From: an uncultured archaeon
GTDB taxonomy: Archaea; Asgardarchaeota; Lokiarchaeia; Sigyniarchaeales; SOKP01
Direction of reading: 5' to 3'
DNA: 64,000 nt
Assembly: GCA_964525635.1 (NCBI GenBank)
Contig: CAZGJX010000008.1
Coordinates: 1 to 64,000, forward strand
This document shows, in pieces, positions 5,067 through 19,594 of this stretch (within the stretch, counting starts at the first letter, position 1; each line of letters starts with the position of its first letter). Both the position numbers and the translations under genes were made by a program. Under the pieces are notes generated by a model. It was not told the origin of the DNA and did no database searches. It was given only the letters and a program-made list of their open reading frames with translations.

Positions 5067-6053
5067 ATGAAATATAGACCTCTTGGAAAAATAGATTTTA
5101 AGGTTTCAGAAATCTCTACTGGATGCTGGCAGTTAGGCGGTAGATGGGGAGAACCATTTGATGAAATATTAGCCCAAGATACTTTAGAGGCCTCATCTTC
5201 TAATGGAATAAACTTTTTTGATACTGCTGATATATATCGAGCTGGTGAAAGTGAGAGATTTTGTGGAAATTTTATTAATTCTACTAAGGAAAAGATTTTT
5301 TTAGCTACTAAATGTGGTAGAAGATTAAATCCACATAATGTAGAAGGATATAATGAAAAGAATATAAGAAAATTTGTTGATGATAGTCTCCAAAATATGC
5401 AAATCGAAACAATAGATCTGATCCAATTACACTGTCCTCCTACTGGTGTTTATTATAAACCAGAAGTATTTGATGTTTTAGATGCTTTAATTGATGAAGG
5501 TAAAATCCATAATTATGGAGTAAGTGTTGAAAAAGTAGAGGAAGCATTAAAAGCTATAGAATATCCTAATATATCAACCATTCAAATTATTTTTAATATT
5601 TTTCGCCAAAGACCTAGTGAATTATTTTTTAAGGAAGCTAAAAAAAAAAATATTGGAATTATTGTTAGAGTACCTTTAGCTAGTGGTTTATTGACTGGAA
5701 AATTAAACAAAAACACAGTATTTAAAGAGGGTGATCATAGAAATTTCAACAGAAATGGTGAAGCATTTGATAGAGGAGAAACATTTGCTGGAGTGGATTA
5801 TGAATTAGGATTAAAAGCAGTTGATGAATTAAAACAAGTTTTTGGGAATTTAGATAATTTAGCTCCATATTCTTTAAGATGGATTTTAATGTTTGATGCA
5901 GTCTCATGTATTATTCCAGGCGCAAGCCATGTTGGTCATGTAATTTCGAATATTGAAGCATCTGATTTACCTCCTTTTACCAATGATCAAATGAAGCAAG
6001 TTAAAGAAATTTATGAAAAATATATAAAAGATTCTGTTCATCATTTATGGTAA
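5067..6053 (+). CDS. Aldo/keto reductase
   Basis: GCWQLGG, FFDTADIY, ATKCG, IDLIQLH, PLASGLL, IIPG. Confidence 0.93.
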   Translation: MKYRPLGKIDFKVSEISTGCWQLGGRWGEPFDEILAQDTLEASSSNGINFFDTADIYRAGESERFCGNFINSTKEKIFLATKCGRRLNPHNVEGYNEKNIRKFVDDSLQNMQIETIDLIQLHCPPTGVYYKPEVFDVLDALIDEGKIHNYGVSVEKVEEALKAIEYPNISTIQIIFNIFRQRPSELFFKEAKKKNIGIIVRVPLASGLLTGKLNKNTVFKEGDHRNFNRNGEAFDRGETFAGVDYELGLKAVDELKQVFGNLDNLAPYSLRWILMFDAVSCIIPGASHVGHVISNIEASDLPPFTNDQMKQVKEIYEKYIKDSVHHLW

Positions 6054-6138
6054 TTCTTTTATAGTCTTATTCCAGAAAAAAGAATTTAAGATGCTCTAAA
6101 TTATTAAATTTTAATTTTAAAAAAAAACAAACAAAAAA

Positions 6139-7671
6139 ATGAAATATTATTTAACTGGAACAATAATTCTTAATAAAGATATTACGACGCATAAAATAAA
6201 AGTTTTAGAATATTTAAAGCAAGCTGAAAATGATATCCTAAAAAAACTCAAAGATCTAGATGAAATTAATTATAGATCGGAATATGAGCTTAAAAATGGT
6301 TCTTCTATCAGAATGAAAATAAATACTCATAAAAGATCAGCTCATATGATATTTTATCGAATAAGAAAATCTCTTGCTGAGTATTTAGGTAAAAATTTAC
6401 ATATTGGAATTAAATCATTAGAAATTGAGTTTTTAAGGATAATTTTTCAACTTGAGAAATTACCCCAAGATCCTTTAACAATACCCTTCGTTAAAAAATT
6501 AGAATTTGATGATGAAGAAAAAACTTGTTTAATCGAATTAGATAATGTTGATAAAAGGTTCATTACCCAAGGGAATGTTGAGAGAATTATAAAGAGGATT
6601 AAAGAAAAAATCGATTTATCTTATTATGAAGGCAAAGCAGAATATCATAAACTTATTTATAAAAGTCCTAAAAGAGAGATAAAAATAAAAAGCGATCCAA
6701 CAACAGAAATGGTTAATCTTAATTGGATTTCTCCCGCTTCTACAAAAGGAAAATGGATTTATTGGGCTCCAGCAACAAATATTTTCTATACTATGGAAAA
6801 AATTGTAGTTGAGGAGGTATTAAAACCTTTAGGATTTAATGAGATGATTAATTCTAATATCGTATCTGGAGAAGATGTTTGGATAAAAACGGGTCATTTA
6901 GAAGGAATGCCAATGGAAATCTATTATGTTGCTGAACCAAAAACAAGAAATGTCAAAGACTGGGAACCTTTTATAGATTTGGTTAAAATTACTCAAGAGA
7001 TTCCTTATGATGAATTTATGAAAATGATACAATTAAAACCTCTAAAAGGTCTTGTTTATGCTCAATGTCCATCCATTTATTGGGCATTAAAGGGAAAAAC
7101 AATAGCAAATGATTCATTTCCAATATTATTATTTGAAAAAACAACAAACTCCTTTAGATATGAATCAGGTGGAAGACATGGAATTGAGAGAGTCGATGAA
7201 TTCCATAGAATTGAAGTTGTGTTCATTGGTGAGCCAAAAGATCTATTAGAATTACAAAAAGAAATCCTTGATAAATATAAATATATCTTCAATGAGATTC
7301 TTGAAATAGAATGGCGAATGGCAAGTGTTACTCCGTTCTACATGCAGCAAGCAGGAGATATCTTTAGGGAAGGAGTTGAGGAAGGTCAGCTAGGAACATT
7401 AGATTATGAAGCATGGTTACCATATAGAGGAACAAGAGATGAGAGTGAGTGGTTGGAATTTCAAAATTTATCTATTGTTGGTGAGAAATATGTAAAAGCT
7501 TTCAATTTGAAGCACCAGAAAAATAAACTGATATGGAGTGGATGCACCGGTATTGGTTTAGAAAGATGGGTAGCGGTATTTTTAGCTCAGCATGGTTTCA
7601 ATATTGATGATTGGCCGAAAAATTTTAGAAAGTTTCTTCCCAAAATGCCAGATCAACTTAAATTTCTTTAA
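6139..7671 (+). CDS. serS: Seryl-tRNA synthetase, type 2 (methanogen-type)
   Basis: YAQCP, FRYESGGRHGIERVDEFHRIE, WLEFQNLS, WSGCTGIGLERW; long alpha/beta N-terminal domain. Confidence 0.92.
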   Translation: MKYYLTGTIILNKDITTHKIKVLEYLKQAENDILKKLKDLDEINYRSEYELKNGSSIRMKINTHKRSAHMIFYRIRKSLAEYLGKNLHIGIKSLEIEFLRIIFQLEKLPQDPLTIPFVKKLEFDDEEKTCLIELDNVDKRFITQGNVERIIKRIKEKIDLSYYEGKAEYHKLIYKSPKREIKIKSDPTTEMVNLNWISPASTKGKWIYWAPATNIFYTMEKIVVEEVLKPLGFNEMINSNIVSGEDVWIKTGHLEGMPMEIYYVAEPKTRNVKDWEPFIDLVKITQEIPYDEFMKMIQLKPLKGLVYAQCPSIYWALKGKTIANDSFPILLFEKTTNSFRYESGGRHGIERVDEFHRIEVVFIGEPKDLLELQKEILDKYKYIFNEILEIEWRMASVTPFYMQQAGDIFREGVEEGQLGTLDYEAWLPYRGTRDESEWLEFQNLSIVGEKYVKAFNLKHQKNKLIWSGCTGIGLERWVAVFLAQHGFNIDDWPKNFRKFLPKMPDQLKFL

Positions 7672-7920: not shown

Positions 7921-10900
7921 ATGGAATCAACATTCAATAATACCTATAAGGATGATGAGGTTCTTTTTAAACTTATATCTTCTATAGGAGATTGGATATG
8001 GTATATTGATCGAAAAGGAATTATTAGATATTGTAGTCCAACTATAGACAACCTAATTAATTTAACTCCAAATCAAATTATTGGTAATTCAATAAATAAG
8101 TATCTTTCAGATGAAATTACTAATGAAAAGATTATAGACATTATTTCAATTTCAGAAAAAACTATTAATGAAATAAATGTTAAAATAATTGATAATAAAG
8201 GCGATGAAATTCCCGTATTAATGTATACAGTTCCACAATTTGCCGAAGATGGAACTTATAGAGGATTTAGTGGAATAAACAAATTATGTAATAAAAAAGG
8301 AAAACAGCAAAAGTCTTTTGATCAAAAATCAATTCAAAAGATTCTATTTAAGAAATCTAAAGATCTAATCTGTCTTGTTGATTCATATAATAAGTATAAT
8401 ATTAAATTTATAAATGAAAATCAATTTTCAAAACAGTTATTTTACTCTTCTGAAGATCTTTTAGGAAAAAATCTATTAGATTTTATACATAATGACGATA
8501 AGGACCGAATTATTGAGATAATAAAAAGTAGAAAATTAAATGAAAAAGATAATAGAGAAATCAGAATAAAGAATCGTAAAAAAGAATTTATCTGGTTTGA
8601 AGTATTTAATAAAGATTTTCTAAATTATGATAGTTCTAAAGATATATTTATATTATTTAAAAATATCTCGACAATCAAAAAACTTCAAAAAGAAATAGAT
8701 GAACATAAAGAAAGATTTGAATGGTTATACAATGAAGTCCCCGAAATAAGATATTGGAAACTACTAATTCCAAAAAAAGCAATAACTGCAGTCCAGAAAT
8801 CACAGGAAATGTTAGAAAAAGTAATTGATAATATCCCTCAATATATTTTTTGGAAAGATAAAGAATTGAATTATCTTGGTTGTAACACGAATTTTTCTAA
8901 ATTAATTAATTTAGATAATCCTGACAATATTAGTGGGATAACAAATAAAAAAATCCCTCTATTTAAAAATTATCTAACGCAACATGAAAAAAAAGAAAAA
9001 GATGTTATTAAACATAATAGACCTAAGTTAGATTCCATTGAATCCTTAATACTCTCGAATGGGAAAAAAGCATATTTTAATATTAATAGAATTCCTTTAT
9101 TAGATTTGAATAATCAAGTTGTTGGACTATTATCAACATATGAAGATATCACCGATCGAAAAGATTCGGAAGAAAAATTAAAAGCTTCAGAAGAAAAATA
9201 TAGAAATATTTTAGAAAATATAAAAGAATGTTATTTTGAAACAGATTTAATTGGAAATATTACTTTCATCAATGATGCATTTTCTGAAGCTACTGGTTAT
9301 AAAAAATATGAGCTAATAGGAATGAATTTTTCTGATTTTTGTGATGATAAAAATAATGAAAAACTTCACAAAGCTTTTAATAAAGTCTATGTAAAAGAAA
9401 AAGGTATACGTGATGTTCAATATAAAGGGCATTTTAAAAATAATAAAGAAGTTGTTATAGAAAGTTCTGTTTATTTAAAAAAAGACTCTGAAGGTAAAAA
9501 GGTTGGGTTTTGTGGACTCTTAAGAATAATTACTGAAAAATATCTGCTCCAGCAAAAATTAAAAGAATCAGAGAATAAATATCGTATTATTTCCGAAAAT
9601 GCAAATGATTTTATAAGTATAATAAATGAAAAATTTGCATATGAATATATAAATGAGCTACCTCATTTAAAAGGAATGGGATATTCGAAAGAAGAATTGA
9701 TTGGAAAAAAATGTCTTGAATTTATTCATCCTGATGATATCAATACATCAATAAAAACATTAAATGAGGGTTTTTATAATAAAGAACCTGGTTGGGGGGA
9801 AGTTAGATTCAAACATAAAAATGGTAGTTGGATATGGATTGATGTCAAAGGAACTCCCTTTATTGATATTGATGGTAAATTAAAAGCTGTATTAATGGCT
9901 CGTGACATCACAGGAAGAAAGAAGACGGAGGAAAAATTAAAAGAATCTGAAGATAAACTTAAAAAACTTAACAAACAATTGGGAGAAAAAATTCTTGAAA
10001 GAACAAGAGAATTAAGAATTTCAGAAGAGAAATTTAGAACAATTACTGAACAATCCTTACTTGGTGTAGCGATTTTACAAAATAATTATGTTCTATACAC
10101 AAATTTAGCATTATCTAAAATGATTGGATACTCTGAAGAAGAATTAAGAAATTGGACACTAAAAGATTTAACTAAATGTTTTCATCCTTCTAATATCGTT
10201 TCTATACCTCTTATGATAAAAGAAATAGAAAACCTGGGTTTAGGTAATACTTTACAATATACTCTAAAAATTATAACAAGTGATAAAAATAATAAATATT
10301 TAGAATTATTTTTAAGAAGAATCCCATATAAATCAAGTTCAGCAATATTAATCTCTGCAGTAGATATAACAATTAAAAAAAAAGCAGAAATTAAATTGAT
10401 TGAATCAGAACGAAAGTTAAAACAACAAAATGAAGAATTAAAGAAACTTGATAAGCTAAAAACAGATTTTATTACAATGGCCGCTCATGAACTCAAAACA
10501 CCTTTAATTAGTATTTCTGGCTATGTCGATCTGATTATATTAAGGGAAAAAACCCTTAAAGAAGATATTAAAGAAGAATTAATGATAATCCTCAATAATT
10601 CAAAAAGACTGGAATCATATGTCGAGAAATTATTAGATGCTCTGAAAATAGATGCTAAAAAAATGGATTTTAAAATGATTAGAATAAAGGTTCCTGATAT
10701 CTTAAATACTTGTCTTACTGAATTGGAATATCAAATCAAGAAAAAAAATATTGAAATTAAATTAGAAGTAAATAATGATATTTCTCTAAATGTAGATCAT
10801 TTCAGGATTTCTCAAGTTTTTTCTAATTTAATAAATAATGCATTAAAATTCACTCCTTCAAATTGTGCTATCCAAATCTCAGATGAAATAAAAGATGATC

Positions 10901-15311: not shown

Positions 15312-15668
15312 TTATTTATATTGATATTTTGTATAAGCTGCTCTGGTTAATCCAACATAATTATCTGATAATTTATAATACATTTTTTCATTTACGACTT
15401 TTTTTTCGACGTAGTCATTTTTAACAACATGGTTTAGAGAATGTACTATCGTCCCTAAAGTCACAGAACCGACATATTTTTGCTTTTTTTTAGCAATTCT
15501 TATTAATTCTAATTCTGAATGCCATGCTCCATCCAATAAAGATCTCAAAATGTCATTCTTCACTGGTGTTTTAATGTCTTTAATTTTATTAAATAAAGTA
15601 TCATAATCAGGTTTATAATAATTTTTGATTAATTGTTTAGAATCATTATTTAAATCCAAATTTGTCAT
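15312..15668 (-). CDS. Small winged-helix-like protein
   Basis: ILRSLLDGAWHSELEL ... YVEKKVVNEKMYYKL wing pattern. Confidence 0.6.
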   Translation of the reverse strand: MTNLDLNNDSKQLIKNYYKPDYDTLFNKIKDIKTPVKNDILRSLLDGAWHSELELIRIAKKKQKYVGSVTLGTIVHSLNHVVKNDYVEKKVVNEKMYYKLSDNYVGLTRAAYTKYQYK

Positions 15669-15806
15669 ATATTTTTGTCACCTTTAATTAAATCTCTTTT
15701 CATATCACTATAATAAATGGATTTATATAACAAGATGTAATACAACAATATTACAATCTATTATAATTATTTATTAGGAGGAAAAAGGTAAAAAAATATA
15801 AAGTAA

Positions 15807-16922
15807 TTATAAAATATTCTCTGGAATTCCATTCTTATAATATTTCCCTCTTGAAATCCAATTTTGTGAGAATTCAGGGATCATAGCTAATATGGATCCC
15901 CCCGTCCAAACTGAATACGTTCTCTCACGGGGAGCAATTATTCGAATTATTTGATCTTTTTTTTTTCTTCTTATCAACTCAAGTTCAAGTTCTTGATATA
16001 ATCGGGCTTTCATATTTGGAAACATGGATGATCCTCCTGATAAGAATATATTATTCAATAATTCAGGCCTTATATCCAAATCACATTGTTCAATAACATC
16101 GATAATTATTTTAGGTAAAGAATCATGCTCCAATTCTGATGTAGGATTAAATAATAATTCAGGTACGATAAATCTTTCTTTACTTAGGGTAATAGTTGAT
16201 CCATCTGGTAAAGAATATTGTTTTTTATATTGCTCACTTCTCTTTAAATCTTCCTTATAATCTAATGATAAAAAACAGGCTTTCTCTTTTATAGCTCTCA
16301 CTATTTCTTTATGTATTGATGATTCCAAATTAAATCCTATTGAATCTTTAAGAACATCTCCCATATAACGAGTCAAAACTCTTCCGCCTATTTCTACAAT
16401 TCTAATTGCATGATTTAATTTATAACCCTCATAAATTGGAATAATTCTAGTACTACTATCACCAATTTCAACAACTAATCCTGTTTGGAATCCTCCAGAA
16501 TAAAGAGTCAACATAGAATCTAAAACTGGATAAAATGCCATACATTGATAATTTTCTAAAAATAATTGAAATAATCGTTTGATATCTTGTCGAGGAAACA
16601 TTGGATGTATAGCAAATAAAACATTAACTAGAGTTGGATCTACTCTCAAGTTATAAAAAATATAATCAATAATTTTCTCAAAAAATTTCCAATCTGTTAT
16701 TTTTCCCTCTTGAATTGGATATTCAATTTTATACAGACCTAAAGATTGTATTTCATCTCCAACATAAAGTTCCTGCTCATTTTTGGTAAATTGATCCTCA
16801 AATCCATGATATTTTGGTGTACCAACCATTGTAAAAAAGATCATTGAAGGATTATCTTCTCCAGAAAATCCACATTTGCTACTAAATTGCCCAATATCAA
16901 GAACAATTGTTAAATTTGGCAT
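15807..16922 (-). CDS. Actin-related protein (divergent Asgard actin family)
   Basis: LDIGQFSSKCGFSGEDNP, LYVGDE, EIGDSSTRIIPIYEGY, GGRVLT, YSLPDG, ERFIVPELLFNP, LSGGSSMFP, SVWTGGSILA. Confidence 0.95.
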   Translation of the reverse strand: MPNLTIVLDIGQFSSKCGFSGEDNPSMIFFTMVGTPKYHGFEDQFTKNEQELYVGDEIQSLGLYKIEYPIQEGKITDWKFFEKIIDYIFYNLRVDPTLVNVLFAIHPMFPRQDIKRLFQLFLENYQCMAFYPVLDSMLTLYSGGFQTGLVVEIGDSSTRIIPIYEGYKLNHAIRIVEIGGRVLTRYMGDVLKDSIGFNLESSIHKEIVRAIKEKACFLSLDYKEDLKRSEQYKKQYSLPDGSTITLSKERFIVPELLFNPTSELEHDSLPKIIIDVIEQCDLDIRPELLNNIFLSGGSSMFPNMKARLYQELELELIRRKKKDQIIRIIAPRERTYSVWTGGSILAMIPEFSQNWISRGKYYKNGIPENIL

Positions 16923-16971
16923 AATTGATAAAATTTTATATTTTAATATTTAGTATTATTAATAATATTAC

Positions 16972-17724
16972 TTATTCTAATATAATTTTTAGAGGTGTAT
17001 ATGTTGTATCGGGTATAAATGCTTCACCATATTTTACGTTAATTTCATTACCTCTTATACGTGCGGTACTCTCTGCCCAAAAAAATATCTGATCTAAAAC
17101 TTTCTTTTGAGAATTATAGAATTGATTGAAAATCTTTTTTTTTCTTTCCCAATGTTTTTCAATATCGACAATAATGTATATTGTTGTTTTTATATATTGG
17201 AATTTACATGAGGGAGATTCATAATAATAAACTGCTAGAGGAGTCCATTGTTTATTAGTTCCTCCATAGGCTTTTCCTGAAACAGAATGATATATACTTT
17301 CCCGAATAATAAATGAAAAATCCCGATGTATTCGATGAAAATCCATATAATGTGGCATTAAAATAACTTGAGGGCGGTATTCACGAATTAAGTTTGTAAT
17401 CCGAGCAATTTTTTTTCTATCTATACTGAGATTATTATAACCTAAATCTATTAAATTGCATTTTAATTCTTTAACGACTTCCCTTATTTCATTCTCTCGT
17501 AATTCGAAAATAGTATCTTTTTGGCTTTCTTGTGAATATCCTCCAATACCTTTTGTACCTAGAACTAAAGTGATATCAGAACCTAATTCCTGATATTTTA
17601 TTATTGTCCCTCCACATGAAATAATTTCGTCATCTGGATGACCTGCAAAAATCATAATTCGTTTTGGAATTATGAAAATATCAGAATTATCTTCAATTAT
17701 AAAATATTTTTTATTTTTATTCAT
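16972..17724 (-). CDS. PIG-L/LmbE family deacetylase
   Basis: AGHPDDE motif, RENE, DFHRIH, YGEAF. Confidence 0.88.
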   Translation of the reverse strand: MNKNKKYFIIEDNSDIFIIPKRIMIFAGHPDDEIISCGGTIIKYQELGSDITLVLGTKGIGGYSQESQKDTIFELRENEIREVVKELKCNLIDLGYNNLSIDRKKIARITNLIREYRPQVILMPHYMDFHRIHRDFSFIIRESIYHSVSGKAYGGTNKQWTPLAVYYYESPSCKFQYIKTTIYIIVDIEKHWERKKKIFNQFYNSQKKVLDQIFFWAESTARIRGNEINVKYGEAFIPDTTYTPLKIILE

Positions 17725-17976
17725 ATTTTAAAAATAATTGGTTTAAATGAAAGAATTGATATACAAAATTTATTATCTCAATAAAAATAAATCTTTTTAT
17801 TCATATTTAACTGAAATTATTTCCTATTGAGTATTATTAATTAATATTTTTAAATACTCTTAGGAATTAGTCATTTTTTAATAAAAACTCGTTGATTAAA
17901 AAATATTTGTTTAGTAAAAAGAATTTATTAATTTATTTTTTTAACAAAAGGAATATAAAGTTAAATTGAGATTTAA

Positions 17977-18621
17977 TTATTCTCCTCGCATTATCTTTTT
18001 TAGTCGATTTAATTCTTCCAGCATTTCATCTCTTAATGAACTTAATCCTCCTCCAGGCTTGGGGGCTATAGGTGCTTGAGGACTCATAGGTGGTGGCCCT
18101 CCTCCTCCCGGTGGTGCTCTAGGGGGACCTCCCCCTCCCGGTGGTGCTGAAGGTAATCTTGGTGCCGGAGGTAAATTTGAAGCTCTTGGTGGCCCTCCTC
18201 CTCCCGGTGGTGCTCTAGGGGGACCCGAAGAAGGTGGTGCTCTGGGTGGGCCTCCTCCTGGTGGGGCTCTAGGGGGACCCGAGGATGGTGCTCTTGGTGG
18301 TGCTGGGGGCGCGGTTGCAGGGCTGGCGATAATGGGTGGAGCAGAACCCGTCTGAGGTGAACCACTTAGAAGAGAAAATAGAGTACTCGCAGCGGCTGTT
18401 TTTACATTTGTTTGTGGAGCCACAACATGAGTAGAAGAGGTACTTACTGTTTTCACTTCTTCAGTTATTTCAACTTCTTTTAAATCTTTTTCTGCTTTAT
18501 TTAATGACTCAATAAAACCTCTAATATTTTTAACAGTATCTTCTAATTCATCAGTTAGTCCAACTAACCCTTTTTTTAAAAAACTTATAACCCGATTCAT
18601 TTTTTTTTTTTCAGAAACCAC
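17977..18621 (-). CDS. Coiled-coil / proline-rich / C-terminal helix protein (WH2- or VASP-tetramer-like end)
   Basis: GTG start after GAGG; N-terminal heptad helix; six PPRA repeats with Gly runs; ends RDEMLEELNRLKKIMRGE. Confidence 0.85.
   Translation of the reverse strand: MVSEKKKMNRVISFLKKGLVGLTDELEDTVKNIRGFIESLNKAEKDLKEVEITEEVKTVSTSSTHVVAPQTNVKTAAASTLFSLLSGSPQTGSAPPIIASPATAPPAPPRAPSSGPPRAPPGGGPPRAPPSSGPPRAPPGGGGPPRASNLPPAPRLPSAPPGGGGPPRAPPGGGGPPPMSPQAPIAPKPGGGLSSLRDEMLEELNRLKKIMRGE
18090..18310 (-). repeat. GC-rich degenerate tandem repeat encoding (G/S)nPPRAPP units
   Basis: Recurrent GGTGGTGCTCT and AGGGGGACC units on the + strand, strongly GC-rich versus the flanks. Confidence 0.85.
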
Positions 18622-18902
18622 GATTTTATCAAATCCTCAATGTTTTAGGAAAGTTAATTTATTTATAATAAGTATTATTTTAAATATATAATCCTTTAAT
18701 ATAAATTTATATATAATAAGTAAATATATTTTTTTAAATTTATTTTTATTTTTTTCTAATAATAGTATAGCTCTTCTGAATTTTAATTGATTATTAATTA
18801 CTAAAGATACTTTTTATATTTTTCAGCTCAATCTATAAAATTTCTTGTTTTTTTTTTCTATAATTAAAGTATAAAAATAATATATATATCAAAGGGCATT
18901 TC

Positions 18903-18926
18903 TTACCTATCTGATTTGGTAGGTAA
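18903..18926. promoter_or_regulatory. Inverted repeat TTACCTA-N10-TAGGTAA (operator or hairpin)
   Basis: Perfect 7-bp arms (9 bp with a G-U pair) in the divergent intergenic region 18622-19327. Confidence 0.35.
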
Positions 18927-19327
18927 AGGTTTTTATTTAAATTAATTGAAATGAAGTTTATTTATAATTCTTTCAATAATGAAATAGAAAAGAGTTAATT
19001 ATAAAATAAAGATATGGTAATATTAATTTTAGTCACATTATATAAAGAAATTTCTTTCTATATGTTTCAAATAATTATATAATATATTTCATTATTAATT
19101 GAAATTCAATCATCATATAAAATTACATCATCAATCATTATTAAAAGCTTACTGATAAATCAAAAAATAAAAATTTGTGATTTAATAAAATATTTAATTC
19201 TTTCTATGTTAAACAATAATATTAATAATAAAAATTAGTACTTATATTATTGATAGTAAAATATCTTTAAATGAGTAAATTAAACAAAATAGATTAAACA
19301 TAATATTTCCATAAAAGGTGATAAGTT

Positions 19328-19594
19328 ATAGGGAAAGCAGAACTTTTTGTAAAAAGAGTCTATGAAATTGTAAATGAGCTCAAGATACCCTTAATTGATG
19401 AGCGAGTATATGATAAAACCATTGTTACTAATAGAAATGCATTAGCAGTTGTAATATTTAAATTTGAAGAAGATGAATCTGTAATACGAGGATTTTTAGG
19501 ATTAGCTGAATATTTCCATAGTGTTATTTTAAAAAAAGATGATGAATTTTATATCCCACATTCATCGATATTATTTAAATTAGAAAGTGTCTAA
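19328..19594 (+). CDS. 88-aa hypothetical protein with ATA start (not in ORF track)
   Basis: AGGTGA at 19316-19321, ATA at 19328, open frame IGKAELFVKRVYEIVNELKIPLIDERVY...FKLESV, TAA 19592-19594; in-frame stop at 19322. Confidence 0.7.
   Translation: MGKAELFVKRVYEIVNELKIPLIDERVYDKTIVTNRNALAVVIFKFEEDESVIRGFLGLAEYFHSVILKKDDEFYIPHSSILFKLESV

Follow-up and report, generated by a model that had tools for sequence, protein, structure and literature searches.

On the reverse strand of a 64,000-nucleotide (nt) stretch of DNA from an uncultured archaeon of the class Lokiarchaeia (contig CAZGJX010000008.1 of assembly GCA_964525635.1, positions 1 to 64,000; "the window" below), the gene at 17977..18621 encodes a protein of 214 amino acids (aa) with a helical head, a long proline-rich arm and a short terminal helix. 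It belongs to a protein family that is real, conserved and specific to Asgard archaea, and no published description of this family was found in the literature searched. On balance, we consider it probable that this undescribed, Asgard-restricted family consists of modular adaptors that act as multivalent tethers. In such an adaptor, the 45-residue N-terminal helix would self-associate and, together with a short LFxLLSG segment, would probably pair with p88, a small protein of matching distribution. The proline- and glycine-rich arm of about 100 residues, which is predicted to be disordered, would serve as a flexible spacer carrying one LPPxPKLPP motif. The last 19 residues are predicted to form an amphipathic helix with about 220 degrees of near-invariant surface (L196, M200, L204, L207 and M211, flanked by E199, E203, R206 and K208), and this conserved face may dock onto a partner that is itself very conserved. 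The same helix is reused in other Asgard proteins, where it could act as a portable docking module.

A word-index search returned more than 196 homologues of 176-267 residues, all from Asgard metagenome-assembled genomes and none with a Pfam domain. Since these homologues have near-invariant N- and C-terminal helices, 17977..18621 is not a chance open reading frame (ORF). The gene is present in a single copy in the host genome (4.45 Mb; the window has about 25% G+C) and runs from a GTG start to a TAA stop; the resulting MVS... agrees with the conserved MVSKEQKK N-terminus of the homologues. The protein has all four elements of the family, namely the N-terminal helix, LFxLLSG, the proline arm and LRxEMLxELxRLKxIM, and shares 50-64% full-length identity with its homologues; the family profile matched it with an E-value of 1.3e-84. 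In the closest group, near-invariance extends over the head (residues 1-90), a central NLPPAPKLPP and the entire tail, whereas PPKAP units differ in number. When the whole protein, the head, the middle and the tail were compared with Pfam, only sub-threshold coiled-coil-like matches were obtained (DUF948, E 0.0028; Flagellin_C; DUF1664). A run of twelve A at 18600..18611 (reverse strand), covering codons 4-8 (E-K-K-K-M), is a possible sequencing error or slippage site; the frame is intact here.

Profile searches demonstrated the family in 187 of 400 Asgard genomes, from at least nine GTDB families. In the window's own family (f1) it was found in 117 of 134 genomes, and it was likewise present in f3 (14/14), f19 (14/19), f27 (4/4), f5 (3/3), f7 (2/2) and f26 (3/3). 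Weaker matches, to the tail only, were obtained in f9, f11, f16, f18, f28, f29 and f31, and the family was essentially missing from f13, f15, f21, f24 and f25 in the same 400-genome search. One locus with the complete Asgard-type arrangement described below (p88, the proline-arm gene, PIG-L, actin paralogue and topoisomerase) comes from a bin labelled 'Candidatus Nanopelagicaceae bacterium' (L041, DATKTW010000083.1), which is probably mislabelled or contaminated.

An AlphaFold2 (AF2) model built with 28 homologues predicted a long helix, a weak helix, a disordered arm and a confident terminal helix. The long heptad-like helix (residues 4-48; 18478..18612, reverse strand as for all parts of this gene) was modelled with a predicted local distance difference test (pLDDT) score of 80-90 and is strongly conserved: K7, R10, V11, F14, K17, G18, L19, L22, D24, L26, T29, I33, F36, S39, L40, K42, A43, D46 and L47 are invariant within f1. 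The short helix AASTLFSLLSG (residues 74-85; 18367..18402) was modelled with low confidence (pLDDT about 50); across the phylum, its L81 is invariant and its L85 is 94% conserved. The arm (residues 93-189; 18055..18345) contains six PPRA units, and its length and repeat number differ among homologues. Within it, the motif LPPAPRLP (18151..18174; family consensus NLPPAPKLPP) stands out in the alignment, with L150, P151, A153 and P154 nearly invariant in close homologues and the version LPPPPK[LM]PP in f3. The putative docking helix, GGGLSSLRDEMLEELNRLKKIMRGE, occupies residues 190-214 (17980..18054); it is conserved phylum-wide and modelled as a helix over residues 193-211 with a pLDDT of about 90. 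The first-pass annotation of this DNA, made from the letters alone, had described the 214-aa ORF, its heptad helix, ASTLFSLLSG, the six PPRA units in about 100 residues of proline and glycine, and the tail, all of which are present in the sequence.

The terminal helix and its recurrence in other Asgard proteins

The terminal helix has the consensus [LIV]xxL[RKQ]xEM[LM]xE[LIM]xR[LI]Kx[IL][MF]. In an alignment of 33 sequences from nine GTDB families, L196, E199, M200, E203, R206 and K208 are invariant, with near-invariance at R197, L201, L204, L207, I210 and M211. When plotted on a helical wheel, these residues fall between 280 and 140 degrees, and the variable positions 198, 202, 205, 209 and 212 fall between 160 and 260 degrees. 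This distribution is the one expected of a helix that packs into a groove or a bundle through a single broad face.

The last 32 residues were used as a profile in an exhaustive search of 1.84 billion proteins (E<=1e-3). Only 54 clusters matched, and every named one was from an Asgard archaeon. A word-index search for longer proteins bearing the tail found none, whereas the exhaustive profile search did recover such proteins, and the recurrence of the helix is seen in P0131, P0136, P0142, P0156, P0167, P0169, P0171 and P0147. In one architecture, a Ras/Roc-like GTPase domain (fused to the helix in P0131, P0171 and P0168) is combined with a proline stretch, the helix and an undescribed zinc-type domain with the pattern CxxCGxxNH ... 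GIPCCxC. Other carriers have two or three copies of the helix ahead of the zinc domain and a further C-terminal domain, and another consists of three tandem copies alone. A further carrier joins a transmembrane helix to the complete proline-arm protein and a TIR domain. Relatives from f9 and f31 (L135, L138 and L139) have an N-terminal transmembrane helix and a different coiled coil, followed by only the arm and the terminal helix; a ribose-5-phosphate isomerase gene is the neighbour common to these membrane-anchored relatives. The recurrence of the helix in GTPase and zinc-domain proteins, in tandem copies and in membrane-anchored variants is new here. Its reuse is shown by these proteins, and it suggests that the helix may be a portable docking module.

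The host genome itself has a second helix-bearing gene, located on contig 24 (7370..7840, reverse strand), which encodes the helix and the zinc domain in 156 aa. A gelsolin-domain gene of the GelX type (5356..6537, forward strand) lies 0.8 kb away, with a small winged-helix-like ORF between the two. At three helix-zinc-domain loci of other lineages, only metabolic neighbours and no gelsolin gene were found. Because of these loci, and because the zinc domain hardly occurs outside f1 (125 of 134 genomes), the gelsolin adjacency is treated as an anecdote. For the latter reason, a universal partnership between helix and zinc domain was also rejected.

The companion protein p88 and the surrounding locus

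The gene for p88 (88 aa; 19328..19594, forward strand) is divergent from the proline-arm gene, from which it is separated by an AT-rich intergenic region of 706 nt (18622..19327). It was recognized as a stop-to-stop frame (19325..19594) that is very well conserved across loci, and is missed by standard ORF callers. No ATG, GTG or TTG start is present here; the frame has ATA at 19328, 6 nt after GGTGA. Among 81 matches (72 from f1), the codon at the start position was ATG in 29, ATT in 18, ATA in 6, ATC in 2 and TTG in 6, and at seven loci an in-frame TAG occurs about eight codons in.

The distribution of p88 mirrors that of the head-bearing protein. It was found, among other families, in f1 (122/134), f3 (13/14), f19 (16/19), f26 (3/3) and f27 (4/4), and was absent from f9, f11, f16, f18, f28 and f29, where only arm-plus-helix matches occur. 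The head is therefore a likelier working partner for p88 than the terminal helix is. In f5, f7, f19 and f27, the p88 gene lies 0.2-1.6 kb from the proline-arm gene, convergent or co-directional with it, and in one of eight f3 loci it lies about 3 kb away. The AF2 model of p88 (pLDDT 87.5) had no clear fold relatives: the best Foldseek match to the PDB had an E-value of 0.1 and the best VIA wide match a Z of 4.0, an Atlas shape search gave only partial matches to pieces of unrelated large proteins, and the language-model atlas gave no usable match. As in many f1 genomes, the host genome has a second, nearly equally conserved p88 copy (contig 69, about 7947..8204, reverse strand). No proline-arm gene lies beside this copy; about 1 kb away, with one gene between, is a weakly longin-like gene (Fuz_longin_1, E 5.6e-4).

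On the other side of the proline-arm gene, and on the same strand, lie a PIG-L family deacetylase gene (16972..17724; PF02585, E 1.6e-20), which is a facultative insert in the cluster, a gene for a divergent actin paralogue of 371 aa (15807..16922; PF00022, E 1.1e-86, 291 bits) and a 118-aa ORF with no Pfam match (15312..15668). This order, as far as the actin-related gene, had already been noted in the first-pass annotation. The gaps between successive genes are 252, 49 and 138 nt, and since the first is AT-rich and exceeds the usual intra-operon length, co-transcription of the proline-arm and PIG-L genes is doubtful. The paralogue is not Lokiactin: it scored 288 bits against the actin model, compared with 443 bits for the Lokiactin of the host genome, and the two are 40% identical.

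Further analysis of 80 species-level loci, all behaving like f1, demonstrated a stable gene order in this family: divergent p88 (71/80), the proline-arm gene, PIG-L (53/80), the actin paralogue (77/80), the 118-aa ORF (76/80) and a convergent topoisomerase gene (72/80). As the topoisomerase is as constant a neighbour as the actin paralogue, this order may simply be inherited. A second sample covered 8 kb around 19 loci from f3, f4, f5, f7, f9, f19, f27 and f31, and in none of these were the actin paralogue, PIG-L, the 118-aa ORF or the topoisomerase found. The other neighbours there were housekeeping genes (RpiA, tRNA-intron endonuclease, PhoU-like, ABC ATPases). Linkage to the actin gene thus holds in f1 and is lost in the eight other families; the first-pass annotation had itself named a lack of conserved linkage as grounds for refuting its reading. 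With a cut-off of E<=1e-110 and at least 48% identity, orthologues of the paralogue were present in 77 of 88 f1 genomes and six of eight f3 genomes (in f3, 44-71 kb from the proline-arm gene); the 245 genomes from other families had none. The proline-arm protein spans many more families than this. Because both the adjacency and the existence of the paralogue are so restricted, action together with the neighbouring Arp-like protein, the role that had been suggested, is not the general role of the family. Adjacency to the actin paralogue is a lineage-specific gene order and not the defining context of the family, and it should not be taken as evidence outside one GTDB family.

Comparison with actin regulators and other candidate partners

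The first-pass annotation had read RDEMLEEL..LKKI in the tail as a WH2 motif or, failing that, as a VASP-like tetramerisation helix, within an architecture resembling nucleation-promoting factors. The layout is real and conserved, and resembles that of Ena/VASP-type factors, but no model of WH2, VASP_tetra or WASP matched the protein. For WH2 (PF02205), the whole protein gave no match at E<=1, nor did the final 50 residues of two members at E<=10. VASP_tetra (PF08776), EVH1 and WASP models matched neither the whole protein nor the isolated tail, the latter at E<=10. No PDB chain bearing WH2, VASP, WASP or thymosin matched the tail profile at E<=10, and searching the PDB with profiles of the tail and of the complete family yielded nothing beyond chance matches (DC-SIGNR neck repeats, an encapsulin cargo signal and MED7). 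Judged by these comparisons, the family has no homology to WH2, Ena/VASP or WASP.

The features of the tail differ from those of WH2 in detail as well. Both have a short amphipathic helix near a triplet resembling L-K/R-K/R. In WH2, LKK[TV] lies in an extended segment after the helix, whereas the triplet of the proline-arm protein lies inside one continuous helix predicted by AF2 (residues 193-211), and LKK is not conserved as such. Phylum-wide, the region reads R-[LI]-K-[KSERA]-[IL]-[MFI], with a variable third residue followed by I or L, not T or V. A WH2-like motif (LKDV, LVDV or LRRV) is known from Asgard two-domain gelsolins (PMC9433394; PMC13716822). The acidic, tryptophan-bearing tail of a WASP/WAVE VCA region is absent, as the protein ends in ...KKIMRGE.

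Two known actin regulators share parts of the layout. Like Ena/VASP, the proline-arm protein has a putative oligomerising helix, a proline-rich stretch and an amphipathic basic helix preceded by glycine; unlike it, the oligomerising helix is N-terminal, so that the order is reversed, there is no EVH1 domain or G-actin site, and the proline units are PPKAP in the family instead of GPPPPP. In human VASP, the F-actin site comprises residues 259-278 (PMC10340426). The tail aligns with this site in one register, in which L, E-M, L and R match at four of the six invariant positions, and scores 13.2 bits with the family matrix. Such a score was reached by 1.4% of shuffles and by 2.6e-4 of the 184,078 20-aa windows of the host proteome, which corresponds to about one chance window per ten proteins of the size of VASP, and the alignment was picked after the fact. 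The likeness to VASP is weak, and is a lead and not evidence of a relationship. Arcadin-2 of Pyrobaculum (PDB 5LY3) binds the hydrophobic groove of crenactin by its C-terminal helix (PMC5173319). It resembles the proline-arm protein in being archaeal, about 200 residues long and encoded beside an actin homologue, with a conserved C-terminal helix as its active part. It differs in that its binding depends on tryptophan, which the proline-arm protein does not have, and in having no proline arm; the actin adjacency of the proline-arm gene occurs in one GTDB family only, and the likeness comes with no demonstrated sequence relation. Further afield, the C-terminal peptide of FtsZ and the archaeal ribosomal stalk protein P1 are docking peptides tethered on flexible arms. 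They offer an analogy of design only, in which an invariant peptide that recruits conserved partners sits at the end of a disordered spacer extending from an oligomeric head; their sequences and partners are unrelated. An ESCRT MIM1-type motif was rejected by eye, as the leucine and arginine spacing did not fit.

Actin, in the form of Lokiactin, is the single most likely candidate partner of the terminal helix, although we regard it as a tentative one, since the case consists of a similarity in design, a faint resemblance of motif and a gene order limited to one family. The published Asgard actin regulators are only profilins and gelsolins, together with an ARF GTPase and BAR proteins from a pull-down, and Asgard motility is reported to go on without formins or Ena/VASP (PMC13716822). 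A less likely reading than the adaptor is that the protein is an Ena/VASP-like actin assembly factor, which corresponds to the idea of the first-pass annotation minus its Arp2/3-type step. Its N-terminal helix would oligomerise, the arm would recruit profilin-actin and the terminal helix would bind the barbed-end groove or the filament side of Lokiactin, thereby promoting elongation, bundling or tethering. The parallels with Ena/VASP and arcadin-2 (PMC5173319), the alignment with the VASP F-actin site, the actin paralogue in 77 of 80 f1 loci and the gelsolin-domain gene 0.8 kb from the second helix-bearing gene point in this direction. An extremely conserved partner is also expected, and Lokiactin is one. 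The same evidence has its counterweights, as no WH2 or VASP model matches, the VASP-site score is common by chance and post hoc, the actin adjacency is seen in 0 of 19 loci of eight other families, and the topoisomerase is an equally constant neighbour in f1. Lokiactin is present in f13, f15 and f21, yet the family was found there in 1 of 31, 0 of 12 and 0 of 6 genomes. The evidence from the arm is divided: some Asgard profilins bind proline motifs, but those of Loki and Odin did not bind polyproline (PMC8410842), and the PPKAP units do not form long runs.

A formaldehyde-crosslinked Lokiactin pull-down from Lokiarchaeum ossiferum (bioRxiv 10.1101/2025.11.30.690169, PMC13716822) bears on the same question. 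The locus tags are collinear with the genome, and the orthologue of the proline-arm gene was placed by genome position and by the masses of flanking proteins (36.98 kDa listed and 37.01 kDa computed for tag 00612; 50.04 and 50.07 kDa for tag 00613). It corresponds to GNAMCCOK_00620 or 00621, with a margin of one tag either way, at about 729.4-730.2 kb of the chromosome. The enrichment-sorted pull-down sheet, covered down to ratios under zero, lists none of the tags GNAMCCOK_00618-00623. The result argues modestly against stable binding to Lokiactin in the conditions used; weak or transient binders can escape a pull-down, and few usable peptides come from the proline arm. Tag 00621 is abundant in the proteome, but it may be the adjacent gene of adenylosuccinate-synthetase size and not the orthologue. 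Another protein of the region, GNAMCCOK_00612 (708410..709402 of L. ossiferum, reverse strand), was significantly enriched in the pull-down (log2 ratio 1.91, adjusted p 0.012) and is unnamed in the paper. The protein has 330 aa, with a coiled coil and, at its C-terminus, a zinc ribbon, and falls into no Pfam family. A single gene separates its own from that of a RagA/Arf-like GTPase some 1.8 kb away, and no homologue of the protein was found in the genome of the window.

The carriers of the helix suggest a different and rather improbable reading, in which the protein serves a small-GTPase or membrane system as its adaptor. It would share the helix, as a signal for recruitment, with Ras/Arf-like GTPase-zinc-domain proteins and membrane-anchored proteins, and the family would tether a GTPase-linked or membrane-remodelling machine, not actin. 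This agrees with the fusion of the helix to Ras/Roc-like GTPase domains (P0131, P0171 and P0168), with its position ahead of the CxxC...CCxC domain and a further C-terminal domain, with the N-terminal transmembrane helices of the f9 and f31 variants and P0147, and with the weakly longin-like gene near the second p88 copy. The zinc-domain family is far narrower than the helix family, however, being nearly limited to f1, no GTPase gene is among the conserved neighbours of the proline-arm gene, and the three helix-zinc-domain loci examined from other lineages have metabolic neighbours only. Finally, that the terminal helix joins helix-bearing proteins as a homo- or hetero-oligomerisation element like that of VASP appears improbable: its 19 residues have hydrophobic spacing of the a/d type, E199, E203, R206 and K208 could form inter-helix salt bridges, and several proteins of one genome carry it, sometimes in tandem, but it is short for a stable coiled coil, the 45-residue N-terminal helix is already suited to oligomerisation, most genomes outside f1 have only one helix-bearing gene, and VASP_tetra does not match.

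Strength and implications of the adaptor reading

Several points weigh against the family being a set of multivalent adaptors. Self-association of the head, its pairing with p88 and docking of the terminal helix are all putative, and a docking helix and an oligomerisation helix are indistinguishable from sequence alone. The proposed pairing of head and p88 is drawn solely from shared distribution and gene proximity in related genomes, which do not count as independent samples, and in f3 the two genes mostly lie apart (p88 is adjacent in one of eight loci). As hardly any zinc-domain partners of the helix occur outside f1, the "portable module" may represent late, lineage-specific reuse.

The family, present in about half of Asgard genomes, is a candidate for a further layer of cell organisation, in which a near-invariant helix, putatively for docking, is carried on a long arm. 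In its boldest form, which we hold to be improbable, it would be the missing Asgard factor for actin-filament assembly or tethering: an oligomer whose invariant helix grips Lokiactin while the arm feeds profilin-actin. In that case, Ena/VASP-type polymerases would have had a functional precursor, or an independently invented counterpart, older than eukaryotes. If the helix binds actin, the family would bear directly on the origin of regulated actin assembly before eukaryotes; if its partner is something else, the helix would still represent a new signal for recruitment, put to repeated use by Asgard archaea on GTPases and membrane-anchored proteins.

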